Program-made: the position numbers and the translations under genes
The notes under the pieces: model-generated
Databases searched by the model: none
Seen by the model: only the letters and a program-made list of their open reading frames with translations
What the model was told of the DNA's origin: nothing
Part shown: positions 9,007 to 17,871 of the stretch, in pieces
Numbering within the stretch: the stretch's first letter is position 1
How the letters are laid out: each line of letters begins with the position of its first letter
Assembly: GCA_012862495.1 (NCBI GenBank)
Contig: BLSG01000419.1
Span: forward strand, 131,354 to 151,353
Length of the DNA: 20,000 nt
Direction: 5' to 3'
Origin: Thraustochytrium aureum
Lineage: Eukaryota

Positions 9007-10037
9007 CGAGCCATGCCAGAATCACGCGGTCGCGCGGCAATCAATCGTTCATCCTCGACCACATCCGGCAGCAGAAACGGGCCAACCTGGCCAAAAAAAC
9101 AGCGAACCAGCCATCAAGCCAGCCAGCCTGTTGGCGAGCCAGCGTGTGGGCCAGATCGAGCGCGCGCGGGCAGCGGAGTCGCATCCGCCATGAAGGCCTC
9201 CGGACATATCCGGACATAGGTAGAATACCCGTTAGCGGCCACAAAGTCCTCAAAGCAGTTTTAGCGGAGCCATCCCACACGTTTGCGCGACACTGCGCCC
9301 CCCAAGGATCCGCGTCGCGCGATAGACAGTGTCTCCGCTGCCTCGAGAGACGCCCGCGCCCGCGGGATGGGACTGCGACCCTGGGCGGCCGAGGCCGCGC
9401 AGCGCTGCGCCATCGCCCGATCGAGGCCATGGATGCACGAGCGGAACACAGCGGGGCTGACTCTAGCTAGAGCTTGCTGAGTAGAGCGCGACTTGACCGT
9501 CTTTACCGCAGGCCGAGCGCCTGAATCAAAACGCCCTTGCTTGCGATTGTTTGCCTGCGTCCTGTTCGCTTGGCGCACGATGTTGGCGCTGGTATTTGCC
9601 CAGGGCTTGCTTGCCTCCCGGTTTTTGGTTTGGTTGTGATGACGGCGGATGGGGCGCTTGCGATGTGGCGACAGCGTTCGCTGCGTGAATGCGCGGCGAT
9701 GCGAAGCCGATGGACCCAGCAAATGTGCCTGTTTGCGCGCGACAGCCTCACACAAGCCATGAATTGATTGATGCTACGACGAGGCCACTTCTACGAGCAA
9801 CGTGCACGCCGGGCCTCGTTGATCTGCGCGGCCTGCGGGAACGGGCTGGTCGTTCTAGTACATGCCGCGGCAGACACCCAACCCTCCGCGCTCCAGAGCG
9901 AGGCAGCTGACCAGGCGAGGGACGTTGGAAGCACCGGGAAGCTCTGGCAGCCTGGGAGCGAGTCCAGCGAGACCACACGGGAGCGCTGTGGGACGCAGGT
10001 TGTGTTGGTCCGTGGGACAGCGGGAACACAAGGAAAG

Positions 10038-11729
10038 ATGAGCGCAGCGCCTGGAGGGTCCGTTGCTGGCAGCGGCGGGGTCCTGAATGCTCGCAACTTG
10101 GGGCTCGCGCTGGCCGTGGGCGCCGTCTCCAACCACGTGCGCATGCAGCGCAAGCTGACTGCCTCGGAAAAGGCCCTCGCTCGGTCGTCCAAGCTCGTCG
10201 CAGAGGATGTGATCGTCGTGGGCGCCGGCATCTCGGGAATCTGCATGGGCATCAAGCTGAAAAAGGCCGGGATCCCGTTCACGATCCTCGAGAAGGAGGA
10301 GGGCTTTGGCGGAACCTGGTTTCTGAACCGGTACCCGGGCTGCGCGTGCGACATCCCCGCTCACCTGTACTCGTTCTCCTTCGAGCCCAAGACGGACTGG
10401 TCGGCGCCGTACGCGCCCCAGGCCGAGATCTACCGCTACTTGGACGGCGTTGCGCGCAAGTACCACCTGGAGCGAAACACTGTGTTCGGGTGCGGGCTCG
10501 CCTCGTCGGAATGGGACGAGGCCACCAGGCGTTGGCACGTGACGACAACGACAGGCGCGACCTACAACCCGCGGTTCGTGATCAATGCAGTCGGGGGCCT
10601 GCACCACCCGAGCTACCCGGACGCGCCAGGCATGGACGAATTTGAAGGCGAGTCGTTCCACTCGACGCACTGGAAGGAGGGGATCGACCTGACGGGCAAG
10701 CGTGTCGTGGTGGTGGGCAGCGCGGCGAGCGCAGTGCAGCTCGTCCCTCACGTGGCAAAGCAGGCCAAGGAGGTGGTCATCTTGCAGCGCACGCCGAACT
10801 GGGTCTCGTCGCGGTTCCACCCGCTGCTGCCGCGAAGCGAGTACTCGAGCGCCTCCAAGTGGTGGTACAGCAACATCCCGCTGGCGGAGAAGTTGCACCG
10901 GCTGTCCCTCTACCTCGCCTTTGAGGCCACCTTCTGGCCGCTCGGCGTCTTTGACAAGGACGGCTTGGGCCAGAGCGTGGCGCAGCGCCTGATCCGCTAC
11001 GAGATGTGCAAACGCCTCGGCAACAACGAGGAGCTCATCGACAAAGTGGTGCCCAAGTACGGCATTGGCTGCAAGCGCATCTGCCGCACGGACGACTACC
11101 TGGAGGCTCTGTGCCGCGACAACGTCAAGCTCATCCCGCAGGGCCTGCGCTCCGTCGGGTCCAACTACGTCGAGGCCGCCGACGGGACGCGCGCCGAGGC
11201 CGATGTCATCATTTACGCAACCGGGTTCCAGGTGGGCTCCATCGGCAAAGACGTCGTGCTCACGGGGCGAAACGGTACGCGGATGACTGGCACGACCGCT
11301 GCCGACGATGCGGTCGAGATGTACCTCGGCGTGGCGTGCCGCGACTTTCCCAACTCGTTCATGATCGTCGGCAGCAACAGCGGGCTCGGCCACAACTCGA
11401 TCATCTTGCTCATCGAGAGCCAGACGGACTACATCATCCGAATGCTGACAGAGGCGATCGACAATGACATTCAGGTCTTCGAGATCCAGCAGACCGTTGT
11501 GGATGAATACTACAAGTGGCTCTGGAAGGAGTTTGACCAGCGCGTCTGGAAGCACGGGGGCTGCAACTCGTGGTACCAGAACAAAGACGGCAAGATCTTT
11601 TCGCTATGGCCTGCGACTACCGTCGAGTTTTTCCGCACCGTGGACAATGCGCCGTCCCTCCGTGATTCGTACATGTACTCGACTGGCGCAGGGGAGAACG
11701 CCTCGGGTGCCCACGCCGCGCGCCTCTAG
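10038..11729 (+). CDS. Type I Baeyer-Villiger / flavin-binding monooxygenase
   Basis: GAGISG (FAD binding), GGTWFLNRYPGCACD, BVMO fingerprint FEGESFHSTHW (FxGxxxHxxxW), VVGSAASAVQ, QRTPNW, GCKR, ATGF and GCNSWY. ATG 10038 is the probable start; the track's upstream extension looks non-coding. Confidence 0.93.
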   Translation: MSAAPGGSVAGSGGVLNARNLGLALAVGAVSNHVRMQRKLTASEKALARSSKLVAEDVIVVGAGISGICMGIKLKKAGIPFTILEKEEGFGGTWFLNRYPGCACDIPAHLYSFSFEPKTDWSAPYAPQAEIYRYLDGVARKYHLERNTVFGCGLASSEWDEATRRWHVTTTTGATYNPRFVINAVGGLHHPSYPDAPGMDEFEGESFHSTHWKEGIDLTGKRVVVVGSAASAVQLVPHVAKQAKEVVILQRTPNWVSSRFHPLLPRSEYSSASKWWYSNIPLAEKLHRLSLYLAFEATFWPLGVFDKDGLGQSVAQRLIRYEMCKRLGNNEELIDKVVPKYGIGCKRICRTDDYLEALCRDNVKLIPQGLRSVGSNYVEAADGTRAEADVIIYATGFQVGSIGKDVVLTGRNGTRMTGTTAADDAVEMYLGVACRDFPNSFMIVGSNSGLGHNSIILLIESQTDYIIRMLTEAIDNDIQVFEIQQTVVDEYYKWLWKEFDQRVWKHGGCNSWYQNKDGKIFSLWPATTVEFFRTVDNAPSLRDSYMYSTGAGENASGAHAARL

Positions 11730-12096: not shown

Positions 12097-12175
12097 AAGA
12101 GTCGCTTCGTCCGCACAGTCACGCTACCGGCATTGCGGTTTTCGCGCGCGCGCATCATACCCACCACCAACCTCG
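12097..12175 (-). promoter_or_regulatory. Candidate eukaryotic SECIS element, type II
   Basis: The minus strand 12158->12109 reads AUGAU GCGCGCGCGCG AAA ACCG CAAUGC CGGU A GCGUG AC UGUGC GGAC. It has the AUGA/GA quartet, a ~10-bp helix II with a 2-nt bulge, unpaired AAA 11 nt after the quartet and a 4-bp apical mini-helix. A helix I (GAGGUUG/CGACUC) is possible. Confidence 0.8.
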
Positions 12176-12273: not shown

Positions 12274-13555
12274 CTAAAAGGCGTATACGAAAACACCTCC
12301 AAAAGCCGCTCCGAGAGCGATGCCGGCGAACAGGAGCAGAAGGACGCGCCCCAGGGCGCTCCAGTTGACAATTCCGTTCACGAACATGCTGATGAAGGTG
12401 TTGGCTACTCAGCAGCCCACCACGAGCTGACCGCGCGTGATGACGGCAGCAGTCAGCGGCACGCCAGCGGCCCACCTGTACTCGCGCGGCGCGCCTGAAT
12501 AGGTGAGCGCAACGCCAAGCAGGAGGGCCACCACGGCGAGCACGTTGCCGATCAGCTTACGCCCCTNNNNNNNNNNNNNNNNNNNNNNNNNNNNNNNNNN
12601 NNNNNNNNNNNNNNNNNNNNNNNNNNNNNNNNNNNNNNNNNNNNNNNNNNNNNNNNNNNNNNNNNNNNNNNNNNNNNNNNNNNNNNNNNNNNNNNNNNNN
12701 NNNNNNNNNNNNNNNNNNNNNNNNNNNNNNNNNNNNNNNNNNNNNNNNNNNNNNNNNNNNNNNNNNNNNNNNNNNNNNNNNNNNNNNNNNNNNNNNNNNN
12801 NNNNNNNNNNNNNNNNNNNNNNNNNNNNNNNNNNNNNNNNNNNNNNNNNNNNNNNNNNNNNNNNNNNNNNNNNNNNNNNNNNNNNNNNNNNNNNNNNNNN
12901 NNNNNNNNNNNNNNNNNNNNNNNNNNNNNNNNNNNNNNNNNNNNNNNNNNNNNNNNNNNNNNNNNNNNNNNNNNNNNNNNNNNNNNNNNNNNNNNNNNNN
13001 NNNNNNNNNNNNNNNNNNNNNNNNNNNNNNNNNNNNNNNNNNNNNNNNNNNNNNNNNNNNNNNNNNNNNNNNNNNNNNNNNNNNNNNNNNNNNNNNNNNN
13101 NNNNNNNNNNNNNNNNNNNNNNNNNNNNNNNNNNNNNNNNNNNNNNNNNNNNNNNNNNNNNNNNNNNNNNNNNNNNNNNNNNNNNNNNNNNNNNNNNNNN
13201 NNNNNNNNNNNNNNNNNNNNNNNNNNNNNNNNNNNNNNNNNNNNNNNNNNNNNNNNNNNNNNNNNNNNNNNNNNNNNNNNNNNNNNNNNNNNNNNNNNNN
13301 NNNNNNNNNNNNNNNNNNNNNNNNNNNNNNNNNNNNNNNNNNNNNNNNNNNNNNNNNNNNNNNNNNNNNNNNNNNNNNNNNNNNNNNNNNNNNNNNNNNN
13401 NNNNNNNNNNNNNNNNNNNNNNNNNNNNNNNNNNNNNNNNNNNNNNNNNNNNNNCCGGTGCTCAGGCGCTTGATCACCGCATCCTTCTCGGCAACCTCGA
13501 GCTCGAGCGCCTTGATGCGAGCCTCCAGCTCAGCAACCTTGGCCGAGTCGCCCAT
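12274..13555 (-). CDS. Putative membrane selenoprotein (in-frame UGA at 12409-12411, Gly-Cys-Sec); middle hidden by the gap 12567-13454
   Basis: 3' part: GRKLIGNVLAVVALLLGVALTYSGAPREYRWAAGVPLTAAVITRGQLVVGC-TGA-VANTFISMFVNGIVNWSALGRVLLLLFAGIALGAAFGGVFVYAF-TAG(12274-12276), followed by the SECIS. Likely 5' part: MGDSAKVAELEARIKALELEVAEKDAVIKRLST (ATG 13555, coiled coil). Joining the two parts across the gap is inferred. Confidence 0.75.
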
Positions 13556-13702
13556 CCTGCCTGCTTGCTTGTGCAACTGGGGTTTCTAGCGCCGCCTGCT
13601 TGCCTGTTTGCCTGCGTGCCTGCCTGCGTCTGCGCTCGCGCTTGCTCTTGCTCTTGTCGGTCTGCGCGCGCTCCACAGCCACTCGCACTGCAAGATAGCT
13701 CG

Positions 13703-13729
13703 AACCTAACCCAACCTAACCCAACCTAA
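13703..13729. repeat. Short (AACCT/AACCC)n pentamer tract
   Basis: aacctaacccaacctaacccaacctaac is visible upstream of the selenoprotein candidate's ATG. Confidence 0.7.
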
Positions 13730-13954
13730 CTCGCGCCGAGCACCCTTGCGCTGCGCGACCGCCGCTCGTGCCAGCGCACGAAACTAAATACAGATGCTTA
13801 TGGTGTTGTTGCGCTATGGGCCTGCGGACGCGAGTGGGCCTTCAGACGCGAGTTGGCTCGTTGCCAGGCTCGCGTGGCCGCTCGATCGCGCGTGGGGGTC
13901 GGCTCTGGCGAACGCAGGTTGGACTCGCTCGAGAGCGAGCGAGCTGTCCGGCGG

Positions 13955-14572
13955 TCACCAGTTCGAGGTGTAGAAGTATTGGCCCTTGTTGATTGGGTTC
14001 TTGCTGCAGTTCGCCCCGTTGTGGCAGTCTACGGGGCACATCTTGCACTGGAGCGTCCAGAAATACGAAACCCCTGGCATTGCAGACAGGTTCGAGCCGG
14101 CCGATGCAAACTGGGTAGTTGCTGGCGCCAGCGACGGGATGCTTGAGAATTGATCCGTGCCTTCGTCCAGGCTGTCATACTCCAGATTCTCCGAGACCCA
14201 GGTGAACCCGTCGTTGGCGTCTTCGTCCTCCTCGGCGTGAAGTGGCGAGCCTTCAAGATCCTCGCCCCCCCCACCCATGGCCTCGTCCTCTTCCAAATCC
14301 TCTACATTCCCCTCGTCCTCCTCCTCCTCCTCGTCGTCGTCCTCCTCCTCGTCGTCGCTGTACGCGTCAATCTGCGCGTTCGCCGCGTCGAGCTCCCCGG
14401 GCAGCTTGAGTTGTTGCAGGCTGGACAGGAGCGCCAGATCAACGTCAAAGTGGGCATGCAGCAGCGCGGCCGACGCGAGCGGCGTGAGCTTGCCAGCGCC
14501 GACCTCAGCGAGCGATGTGAGCCTGTCCTTCACCGCCGTCCGCGCCTTGCACTGCACGTCCCTGAGCGCCAT
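13955..14572 (-). CDS. Hypothetical acidic protein with C-terminal CCHC zinc knuckle
   Basis: From ATG 14572: MALRDVQCKARTAVKDRL..., a long D/E tract, then CKMCPVDCHNGANC, which is C-x2-C-x4-H-x4-C. The track's upstream extension is (GCCT)n repeat noise. Confidence 0.65.
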   Translation of the reverse strand: MALRDVQCKARTAVKDRLTSLAEVGAGKLTPLASAALLHAHFDVDLALLSSLQQLKLPGELDAANAQIDAYSDDEEEDDDEEEEEDEGNVEDLEEDEAMGGGGEDLEGSPLHAEEDEDANDGFTWVSENLEYDSLDEGTDQFSSIPSLAPATTQFASAGSNLSAMPGVSYFWTLQCKMCPVDCHNGANCSKNPINKGQYFYTSNW

Positions 14573-14688
14573 CCCGACCTCGCGCAGTCTCGACCGCCCT
14601 GCGCCAGCCGACGCAACCCGACGGCCACACGGCCGCTGCAGCCGATACCAGCGTTTCCAGACGCCCTTGCCGTTCGTTGCACCGCGCT

Positions 14689-14719
<31 letters not shown>

Positions 14720-14721
14720 CC
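14689..14721. repeat. (GCCT)n tetranucleotide microsatellite
   Basis: About 8 copies are visible. Confidence 0.9.
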
Positions 14722-14805
14722 CGCGGCCAGTTTTGATTCTCGCCTGCCTGCCCGGCAATCGGCCTTTATTGTCTGCTCGCGCTCCGCGGATCATCAGAAT
14801 GCCAA

Positions 14806-15170: not shown

Positions 15171-16851
15171 ATGGGGCGCGACCTGGTGCTGTGGACGAGT
15201 GTGGTGGCGGTCTGGGTGGCAGTGTACGCCGTGCTGGAGGCGGCGAGAACGCCGCCTCGAGGGGCTGTTCTCCTGCTCGAAAAGCTGCGGCTTCGACGTG
15301 ACGAGGTTGTGCCGAGGGCTGGCAGCGCCAGGGTTGCGCTTGGGTACAATGTGTGCTTGGATGCCGTAGTGAACGTGTTTGAGCTGTTTGACGCAGCCGG
15401 AGTTGAGCCGCCGACGCGCGCGGAAGACCACGCTGACCTCGGGTCGAAAGCGGAGCTTGCCGAGACTTTCTTGCTGCACTTTGCCGAGGCGGCCGGCGGC
15501 GAGCGCGCCGTCACGGACAAAGAGACCTTTGCCGCGCTGGAGGAGGCGCTCGAGCGCGCCGAGCACCACAAGCACCTTGGCGGGAATGCCGCGATCATGG
15601 CCGTCGTGCTCGCGCGCGACTATGGGTTCAAGCACGTTCTGCTCGGCGGCCAGGTCGGGCCTGCCATTGAAAGCCTCCTGCCCAAGTCCATCGAGACTGC
15701 GGGGCTCGACTCGGGCCCAAGGTCCCTCGGCGGCGAGCTAGTCGACGTGCGCCAGGACGAGACGCACATCATTCTCGAGTACCCGCGAGGTGCCACTTGG
15801 GGCTCGACGGGGGCGCGCGCGGCGCGGGCCAATCGGTTCATCATCTCGCGCGACATCTCCAACTCTGTGCTCGCCCCGCTCGAGCCCCTCAACGCGCGCG
15901 TTGTCGCCGCAGACAAGCACTTTGATGTGCTCGTGGCAGCTGGCTTCCACATGCTCGACAGCATGGACGAGGCATTCCGCGCCGAGAGGCTCGCGGCAAT
16001 CCGCCAGAGCCTCGCCCAGGTCCCAGCGGACACGCGCATCCACTTTGAGCTTGCGTCCGTGGGCGACGCCGAGCTGCTCCGCGACCTCGCCCGGTCGGTG
16101 CTGCCGCTCGTTGACTCGCTTGGCCTGAACGAGNNNNNNNNNNNNNNNNNNNNNNNNNNNNNNNNNNNNNNNNNNNNNNNNNNNNNNNNNNNNNNNNNNN
16201 NNNNNNNNNNNNNNNNNNNNNNNNNNNNNNNNNNNNNNNNNNNNNNNNNNNNNNNNNNNNNNNNNNNNNNNNNNNNNNNNNNNNNNNNNNNNNNNNNNNN
16301 NNNNNNNNNNNNNNNNNNNNNNNNNNNNNNNNNNNNNNNNNNNNNNNNCAGTGGAAAGTGGGGCCCCAGGCGCCGAGGCTGTCGACTTGGGTGCCATCGC
16401 TCAAACGGTGCCCGATGTGGGGGCCGTGTGTGCAGGGCTCGAGCAGCTGATTCGCGCCGAGCGCGCGGGATCGGCTAGGCAGCTGCGACGGGTGCACTTC
16501 CACAGCTATGCCTTCCATGTGGTGGTTCAGGACGAGTCGGAGGGCCTCGAGCGGCCCTGGCCCAACATGGCGGCCGCTGTGGCGGCAGGGTCGGTGAAGG
16601 CCTCCGAGCGGGCCTGCAACCAGACTGCGCTTGGGGAGGAGGACATCACGCTGCAGCTCGCGCGCTCGTTTCAGCTTGCTAATGGGACGCAGGTGATGCT
16701 TGAAGCGGACCAGCCTGTCGTCGAGTGGTCGTCCGAGGCGTTTCCCCACATCAAGTTTGCTCTTGCACCCGTCCTGACCTGCAACACGCCGGTGCAGACG
16801 GTGGGCTTGGGCGACTCGATCTCGGCTTCGGCGTTGGCCTACCAGGCATGA
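15171..16851 (+). CDS. ADPGK: ADP-dependent glucokinase (ADP-PFK/GK family) with N-terminal signal anchor; interrupted by the gap 16134-16348
   Basis: Hydrophobic N-terminus (LVLWTSVVAVWVAVYAVL), VALGYNVCLD, AGGER, GGNAAIMA, HIILEY, RANRFI, IHFELAS and DSLGLNE. After the gap come RVHFHS and PVLTCNTPVQTVGLGDSISA, the catalytic GxGD motif. Confidence 0.93.
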
Positions 16852-17080: not shown

Positions 17081-17871
17081 TCAGACTCGCTGCCTCTTCC
17101 CGGAGGAGCCAGCCTTCCTTCCCTTGGCGGCGCCCTTGGCCCCGCCGCCTCCTACCTTGCGCTTTTTGCTCTTTCGCAATTCTTTGAAGGACATCGTGTT
17201 CTTGCGCTCGCGCTGCACCTCGCCGTAGACACGAGTTGTGTACGCTGTCACGGCCTTGTCGCCGAGAACCTGCTGCAGAATCGTGGGCTTGCGTTCACTC
17301 GCGCGCATGCGGTGCGACTTGAACTCGCCAAGGCCCTCCTTGACGGTGCCGATCTGGAATGTTGTGGGGAGGCCCTTGCGGTCGCTGGCCTTGTAGAAAC
17401 GTTTTGGGTCCATGTAGTTACGGAGCTGCAGCACCTTGAGGTCACGCTCCATCTCGGGCGTCATATCTGGCGTGACCATGTCGTGGAAGCCGCGCAATTC
17501 GCCAGACCGCTTCGCGCGCGTTGTTGCCTGGTCTCGAGCAATCGAGCTCATGAACTTTCCGCTCTCCTTGGCAGTCAGCTCGCCGCGCTCCATGGCCTGG
17601 ATCGCCTCTGCGCTGCCCACGTCGTCAAACCCAGAGTCAAGCCTCGTTGGTACTCTGCTCTCGTTCTTGCCTTTCGCTTCAGCAGGCTGCGCGGGCAGCT
17701 CGGCGGCCGCCCACCTCATCCTGCCCTCGCATTCCTCGACGCCAGCGTCCGCCGCGCAGCCACACTCACGCCCTTCCTCGGCAGGACGGTGCCAGCCAGT
17801 AGCGCGCCAGCCTCGCCGACCTCCTCCTCGTCGCTGCTCTCGGCGTCGCGTTGAGCGCGCTTGCCGGCCAT
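17081..17871 (-). CDS. FCF2: rRNA-processing protein Fcf2 (DNTTIP2 family); probable exons 17871-17770 and 17686-17081
   Basis: DMVTPDMTPEMERDLKVLQLRNYMDPKRFYK...FQIGTVKEGLGEFKSHRMRASERKPTILQQVLGD is the Fcf2 domain, followed by a Lys-rich tail. The N-terminus MAGKRAQRDAESSDEEE joins in frame through an 83-nt GTGAGT...GCGCAG intron. Confidence 0.9.

Follow-up and report, generated by a model that had tools for sequence, protein, structure and literature searches.

The locus and its surroundings

The window, that is, the whole 20-kb stretch of DNA analysed here, carries on its minus strand the 3' part of a coding sequence in which a Cys codon is directly followed by an in-frame TGA (codons 51 and 52), with 44 sense codons between this TGA and the closing TAG (Table 1). 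The preliminary description of this DNA had pointed to a multi-helix membrane frame with such a Cys-TGA pair, and to an open stretch with a further membrane helix downstream of it. Both were recovered, the last helix reaching a 19-residue hydropathy of up to 2.4. The frame begins at the edge of a gap of 888 N, one of six N runs in the window, and the coding sequence is thus a fragment.

Table 1. Features of the candidate selenoprotein locus (positions in the window)
Feature	Position	Strand	Remarks
Type II SECIS-shaped element	12100..12168	-	AUGA, 10-pair helix II, AAAA bulge, 4-pair mini-stem, GA, weak helix I
3' part of coding sequence	12274..12564	-	96 codons and TAG; spanned by X1 to X4 contigs without joints
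C-terminal membrane helix, predicted, residues 68-95	12280..12363	-	Holds three synonymous differences
Short hydrophobic helix after Sec, residues 53-63	12376..12408	-	The bacterial proteins have a soluble beta-hairpin at this place
In-frame TGA, residue 52, inferred selenocysteine	12409..12411	-	Falls on the bacterial Sec/Cys column; by eye on the U of Ostreococcus hypothetical protein 3
Cys codon TGC just before the TGA	12412..12414	-	Bacterial family has Thr here, both Ostreococcus proteins Leu
Membrane helix 2, predicted, residues 34-49	12418..12465	-	After invariant R30, with P36; ends just before Cys-Sec
Membrane helix 1, predicted, residues 2-23	12496..12561	-	Model helix; hydropathy up to 2.1; family R2 and G6; R2 invariant in alignment A2
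888-N gap hiding the 5' part of the gene	12567..13454	.	X3 contigs enter 424 and 757 letters from the two sides
ATG and 33 coiled-coil-like codons	13455..13555	-	Possibly the start of the Sec gene, possibly a separate gene

Among the neighbours, the ORF at 3295-4440 matches the proteasome subunit RPN3 (E 1.7e-105), which identifies the window as eukaryotic. A flavin monooxygenase-like gene (9771-11729, plus strand; Pfam FMO-like) is convergent with the candidate selenoprotein gene, the two stops lying 545 bases apart. Upstream, on the same strand as the candidate, the ORF at 13955-14794 encodes a long acidic tract and a Cys-rich C terminus and ends with TGA. The ORFs at 15171-16478 (plus strand) and 17081-17719 (minus strand) presumably resemble ADP-dependent glucokinase and the Fcf2 rRNA-processing protein, respectively. 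A GCAG-type simple repeat at 13594-13627 drew many short contigs, and a short TTAGG-like repeat lies at about 13700-13735, upstream of the ATG at 13555. No tRNA was found in the 20-kb window.

Contigs from two studies were compared with the locus: X1 and X5 derive from one sample, the probable source, and X2 to X4 are three runs of a second study. The RNA label of X2 to X4 is a guess made by a tool, no run on record as RNA being listed, and the points at which their contigs stop were given no role as evidence. From the ATG side, one X3 contig extends 757 letters into the gap and, from the Sec side, another extends 424 letters; these lengths add up to more than the 888 N, and the depths of the two contigs differ threefold. 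None of the X1 to X5 contigs links the ATG segment, which coiled-coil families matched only below their cut-offs, to the Sec segment; the locus may hold a single gene of about 500 residues or two genes. Read by eye, the 30 contig letters beyond the gap edge keep the frame open and contain no Cys codon; they include an Asn, three residues off the register of the N-I motif that hypothetical protein 3 and its bacterial relatives, described below, have before helix 1.

Contigs of X1, X5 and X2 to X4 cover the TGA, none of them showing a different letter or a joint at this point; the depth of the source is low (about 4). Two concerns of the preliminary description, a misread letter and splicing out of the TGA at the GT next to it, were checked on these contigs. 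The letters are unchanged in X1 to X5, the second study included, and contigs of both studies keep the TGA without a joint. Moreover, this GT belongs to the Val codon of a conserved U-V-A motif. We also determined how TGA is used elsewhere in the window. RPN3 could be aligned to residue 376 of 381, corresponding to residue 527 of 533 of the human chain, and then ends with TGA. Four of the five neighbouring ORFs checked are terminated by TGA and none of the five contains it internally, TGG and TGC being normally used. Thus, TGA is an ordinary stop codon here.

Codon usage downstream of the TGA is coding-like, as had been proposed. The synonymous codon bias is +0.09 in frame, compared with -0.26 and -0.53 when the other frames are read and with values between -0.07 and -0.31 for the 3' region; 6 of 5000 shuffles reached +0.09. 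It is weaker than upstream of the TGA (+0.28), and GC3 is 0.70 after the TGA versus 0.82 before it. All three listed coding differences of the second study (12352, 12325 and 12283) are third-position and synonymous and lie downstream of the TGA; they represent one haplotype common to the three runs of that study, and each contig carries one further difference outside this list.

A type II SECIS-shaped element was found about 115 nt 3' of the TAG, in agreement with the hairpin noted in the preliminary description; Rfam gave no SECIS family match for it. Its landmarks are AUGA at 12158-12155, AAAA at 12142-12139 and GGAC at 12112-12109, and its 10-pair helix, which carries two single bulges, has an energy of -13.9 kcal/mol together with the 4-pair mini-stem. 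A strict scan of both strands of the 20-kb window, with thresholds fixed after the element had been seen, returned this element as its sole match; when the 250-nt 3' region was shuffled 3000 times, 8 shuffles produced a match of any kind. A second scan, which was our own and not SECISearch, used criteria modelled on PMC2375036 (NUGA, 10 to 13 nt, AA, 15 to 39 nt, GA, and energy limits). The element agrees with these, having spacings of 12 and 29 nt, an upper stem of -13.9 kcal/mol and a forced whole of -20.0 kcal/mol, and it is the only AA-type match of three in the window. The other two SECIS-like matches (15514 and 15667) are CC-type, lie inside the 15171-16478 ORF and are probably due to chance. 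Long mini-stems have been described for protist SECIS elements in PMC2375036.

When a 79-nt piece was folded, the forced SECIS shape (-20.0 kcal/mol) was close to the free fold (-20.5 kcal/mol); with a 96-nt piece, the forced shape reached -21.9 kcal/mol versus -25.1 kcal/mol for a competing fold, which is thus 3.2 kcal/mol more stable. A 241-nt piece of the 3' region, folded freely, is not out of the ordinary (z -0.48). In the X2 contig (depth 7.7), a change at 12115 turns a helix II G-U pair into G-C. We gave this change little weight, because it also stabilises the competing fold.

Relatives in bacteria and in Ostreococcus

Single-sequence searches with the 96-residue read-through protein detected no true relative; four repeat-type matches and two matches of 12 to 13 residues were rejected, and Pfam and NCBIfam returned nothing meaningful for the window protein. 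Bacterial genomes were scanned with a short motif that had the Q and the U-V-A in common with the query, which yielded 20 loci. Eighteen of them are genes of one family read across TGA (two of these, L011 and L012, are cut by contig ends), and the remaining two, L010 and L019, are chance motif matches. The family shares the motif Q-A-x-x-x-T-U/C-V-A, and its loci come from Anaerolineae, Myxococcota, Gemmatimonadales and others (entries L003-L009, L011-L018, L020-L022 and L036; proteins P0006-P0125). Where the locus is not cut right after the TGA (17 loci), the frame continues for 52 to 58 codons past it.

An alignment of 14 loci with the window protein found 277 proteins, 120 of them listed. 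Among these 120, the Sec column is occupied by Cys in 41, by Trp in 3 and by Arg in 2, and 74 end one residue before it. The Trp proteins are P0008, P0032 and P0044 and the Arg proteins P0053 and P0098; these residues may reflect single-base changes of TGA or translations with another code. A hairpin follows the UGA in all 16 bacterial loci that were folded, with three pairs kept in 16/16 and one pair changing on both sides in 7 loci, and selA scored over its cut-off in the five genomes tested (5/5). Taken together, the Cys residues, the truncations, the hairpin and selA indicate that the bacterial site is a Sec/Cys site. The preliminary description had expected TGA or Cys at the aligned position of homologues, and the 41 Cys proteins and 74 truncated ones accord with this. 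A second Cys, within four residues before N-[IV]-[GSDN] and just before helix 1, is present in 112 of 117 bacterial proteins.

This bacterial family is covered by no Pfam or NCBIfam model, and we could match it to none of the 119 entries that the 2026 inventory PMC13188914 lists in its Table 1; it merits a description of its own. GOS_B (NF041374) was considered as a possible name and rejected, and no plasmid match was obtained. Its distribution in one phylum is patchy, since 151 sampled genomes gave 4 matches, 2 of them strong and one of these the centre genome. For the ten Sec-type loci fetched with their flanks, 34 of 44 ORFs were scanned, most of the others overlapping the Sec gene itself. 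DoxX-family genes flank two loci (L024:541-2306 and L026:295-987) and were not seen at the other eight in the ORFs scanned; such neighbours are a hint only. An NAD-dependent epimerase gene lies downstream at three Sec-type loci (L024, L025 and L026). Three genomes (L028, L034 and L035) carry a second, Cys-type paralogue immediately after a gene for an RlmKL-like methyltransferase. Among the weak matches of the bacterial members, the commonest was the YgaP-like transmembrane domain PF11127, likewise a small helix hairpin (20 of 85 members at E <= 0.1, best 1.4e-4). When five genomes were scanned with the PF11127 model at E <= 1, the family loci were not among its matches, and the window protein has no Pfam match; a link between this domain and the family would be distant at most.

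We then assessed the alignment of the window protein to this family. A profile of 16 bacterial loci, built without the window sequence, covered residues 2-54 ungapped and placed U on U with 14.5 bits, a score reached by 0 of 2000 shuffles. With a 59-sequence profile (43 proteins and 16 loci), the score rose to 17.7 bits, equalled in none of 10,000 global and in 1 of 10,000 local shuffles; the bacterial relatives suspected in the preliminary description are thereby borne out. Because the scan motif overlapped the query in Q and U-V-A, residues 1-45 were scored separately with this motif left out, and gave 18.5 bits (0 of 4985 scored shuffles). The hhalign program aligned 53 columns ungapped in the same register, with an E value of 2.1e-4 and a probability of only 45.7%.

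Conserved residues shared with the bacterial proteins include R2, G6, R30, P36, Q46 and U-V-A. The bacterial proteins differ from the window protein by a Thr in front of Sec, a Cys at the N terminus, a beta-hairpin downstream of Sec and a SECIS inside the gene. Conservation had been anticipated on either side of the UGA; it was found upstream, where residues 2-54 align ungapped, but downstream it is confined to U-V-A. The profile match ends at residue 54, and the 42 residues after U-V-A, which make up the non-alignable C-terminal half, were unmatched. Among structures, no solved one was matched by sequence. Fold searches, which are uninformative for helical bundles, gave a best Z of 7.3 for the window model and 6.9 for the bacterial model and a best Foldseek E of 1.9, and an Atlas search with a bacterial Cys homologue returned unnamed clusters only and no named match.

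The closest relative among eukaryotes is the Ostreococcus selenoprotein "hypothetical protein 3", for which sequences from two species are given in supplementary file 2 of Lobanov et al. 2007 (PMC2375036). Counting back from U, each of these two sequences fits the window protein ungapped with 16 of 51 identities, by hand count and with no tool. For O. tauri, the identities are R2, G6, V8, V12, L14, A19, G24, A25, R27, R30, P36, L37, A40, G45, G50 and U52. Hypothetical protein 3 and the window protein are alike in being eukaryotic and in having a helix hairpin and then Sec in the same register, followed by a hydrophobic C-terminal helix. Unlike the window protein, with its Cys before Sec, the two supplementary sequences have Leu at that place, no Cys near Sec and none before helix 1; about 55 residues follow Sec and include a soluble segment, versus 44 residues with a shorter hydrophobic segment in the window protein, whose N-terminal part may in turn be much longer.

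The hairpin with R, G, R and P in register, followed by Sec/Cys, is thus present in the window protein, whereas the conserved soluble segment that the family has between Sec and the last helix is absent, with no profile match past residue 54. Because this segment is unmatched, the window protein is, as judged from the alignments, a divergent relative sharing the Sec hairpin and not a full-length member of the hypothetical protein 3 family. On these alignments, we regard it as likely that the hairpin shares its origin with those of hypothetical protein 3 and of the bacterial proteins, and a wholly new family, one of the options in the preliminary description, is not what was found. The UGA falls on the Sec/Cys column of both the algal protein and the bacterial family and is therefore very probably read as selenocysteine, and the recoding mechanism would be the ordinary eukaryotic one. 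In a literature search, with most subscription journals outside its scope, the name "hypothetical protein 3" occurred in one publication only, and nothing linked this protein to bacteria or described a Cys-Sec form. The "Hypo" family of PMC7539508 may hold further algal members.

The preliminary description had suggested an MSP-type protein. MSP of Ostreococcus, Chlamydomonas, Volvox and Dictyostelium has the motif P-x-L-V-G-[SA]-U-C-W-P, as given in PMC2375036. It is likewise a protist multi-helix membrane selenoprotein with Sec and Cys as neighbours and a superficially similar L-V-G before them. However, its U-C is followed by W-P and stands in an early part of the protein, ahead of several helices, and the R...G...R...P pattern is absent from the MSP sequences compared. 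On comparison by eye, the Sec-before-Cys order and the motif are unlike those of the window protein, and we rejected the MSP label; the algal relative, hypothetical protein 3, is another protein in the same paper.

Predicted architecture and candidate redox chemistry

The model of the window protein (pLDDT 86, pTM 0.64; Sec folded as Cys) has helices at residues 2-23, 27-32, 34-49, 53-63 and 68-95 and places Cys51-Sec52 in a loop after the helix hairpin. Helix 2 is only moderately hydrophobic (about 1.3-1.6). In the model of a bacterial Cys member (pLDDT 94), this hairpin recurs, a beta-hairpin comes after the site and the last helix is long, so that the hairpin, the Sec loop and the final helix occur in both models. 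According to the positive-inside rule, basic residues mark the cytosolic side of a membrane protein; since the bacterial proteins have such residues before helix 1 and after the site, we infer that the N terminus and the Sec loop face the cytosol.

Thioredoxin reductase ends in Gly-Cys-Sec-Gly. Its tail has the Gly-Cys-Sec sequence in common with the window protein and serves here as a model for the chemistry. Unlike that tail, which sits at the extreme C terminus of a flavoprotein, the Cys-Sec pair of the window protein is internal, with 44 residues following the UGA, lies at the predicted membrane surface and is accompanied by no FAD domain in the sequenced part. The proposal of a membrane redox selenoprotein with an internal Cys-Sec pair is retained as far as the position of this pair at the end of a helix hairpin is concerned, but the comparison with thioredoxin reductase is an analogy only.

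We consider it reasonably probable that the UGA is read as Sec with the help of the predicted 3' SECIS and that the adjacent Cys-Sec pair is a redox centre at the membrane surface. The adjacent-pair mechanism itself, which is modelled on thioredoxin reductase, has in our judgement a somewhat better than even chance. In such a mechanism, the selenolate would attack an oxidised sulfur substrate at the membrane (disulfide, persulfide or peroxide), Cys51 would resolve this adduct by closing a selenenylsulfide ring of the kind formed in the tail of thioredoxin reductase, and the pair would be restored by a reductant of the thioredoxin or glutathione type. The window protein would thus work as a small membrane selenol oxidoreductase. 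In the bacterial proteins, a Sec-Cys redox pair would instead be closed across the hairpin, since 112 of 117 have a Cys before helix 1, on the same side as Sec, and this conserved N-terminal Cys would do the resolving step. At the position of the bacterial Thr the window protein carries Cys, and no Cys codon occurs in the 30 letters beyond the gap edge; the simplest reading is therefore that, in this lineage, the resolving role moved from the N-terminal Cys to the residue next to Sec. Both of these Cys residues are missing from the Ostreococcus proteins, so that a resolving Cys is not required throughout the family and the case for a partner is weakened.

The pairing of Cys with Sec might also serve another chemistry. 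The main rival, which we think unlikely, keeps the UGA as Sec but has the Cys-Sec pair bind a soft metal or metalloid (Hg, As or Cu) at the membrane, so as to sense, transfer or detoxify it. All evidence for Sec is equally compatible with metal binding, and CU motifs occur in predicted bacterial metal-handling selenoproteins such as HgcA, SaoL and MbdU (Table 1 of PMC13188914). However, in the relatives the site holds one Sec or Cys by itself, and the 34 neighbouring ORFs scanned contained one HlyD/CusB-type fragment, with no other metal-resistance genes identified. Cys51 could alternatively be incidental, the protein being a single-selenol catalyst like the Ostreococcus proteins, with an outside thiol that resolves. 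This fits with the Leu before Sec in Ostreococcus and the lack of Cys at the bacterial N-terminal position in those two sequences, and Cys51 itself is known only from this organism and one close haplotype. But 112 of 117 bacterial proteins keep a second Cys, which points to a partner thiol as the usual arrangement, and an adjacent Cys-Sec is a known redox motif, so that we find an incidental Cys51 improbable.

Decoding as Sec is itself challenged by two readings of the TGA. A decayed selenoprotein gene, in which the UGA is now a true stop, would yield a short two-helix protein ending in Gly-Cys and leave the downstream frame and hairpin as relics. The non-alignable C-terminal half, the fall in codon bias after the UGA and the absence of an Rfam SECIS match are in line with decay; the exclusively synonymous downstream differences (3/3), the 44 open codons with a strongly hydrophobic last helix as in the relatives, and the SECIS-shaped element still in place argue against it, and we judge decay to be about as improbable as an incidental Cys51. 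An artefact, be it a sequencing error, an intron or a code with UGA as Trp or Cys, is hardly credible. The GT directly after the TGA, the low source depth of about 4 and the guessed RNA label of X2 to X4 leave some room for it, but the TGA stands without a joint in contigs of two studies, ends RPN3 at its homologous C terminus and is internal in none of five ORFs; the GT belongs to the codon for Val in the conserved U-V-A, and the site falls on the Sec/Cys column.

Selenocysteine with an adjacent Cys as its redox partner is hence the reading that we prefer for the window protein. Membrane selenoproteins known from protists are few, and the closest relative of this one consists of two Ostreococcus sequences left unexplained since 2007. 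The link to the bacterial Sec/Cys family supplies small, expressible Cys homologues, and it exposes a systematic annotation error, 74 of the 120 listed bacterial proteins being cut at the Sec codon. Relative to these proteins, what appears to be new here is the adjacent Cys-Sec pair and the non-alignable C-terminal half. Hypothetical protein 3, the widespread bacterial family and the window protein could conceivably form one cross-domain membrane redox relay family, possibly derived from a YgaP-like hairpin. In the lineage of the window protein, an adjacent pair would then have replaced the distant resolving Cys and created an internal centre like that of thioredoxin reductase on a membrane, perhaps fused to a protein of about 500 residues with a coiled coil at its N terminus; we hold this broader view only tentatively and rather doubt it. 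The relatives offer a natural series, with an N-terminal Cys and Sec in bacteria, a lone Sec in Ostreococcus and an adjacent Cys-Sec pair here.
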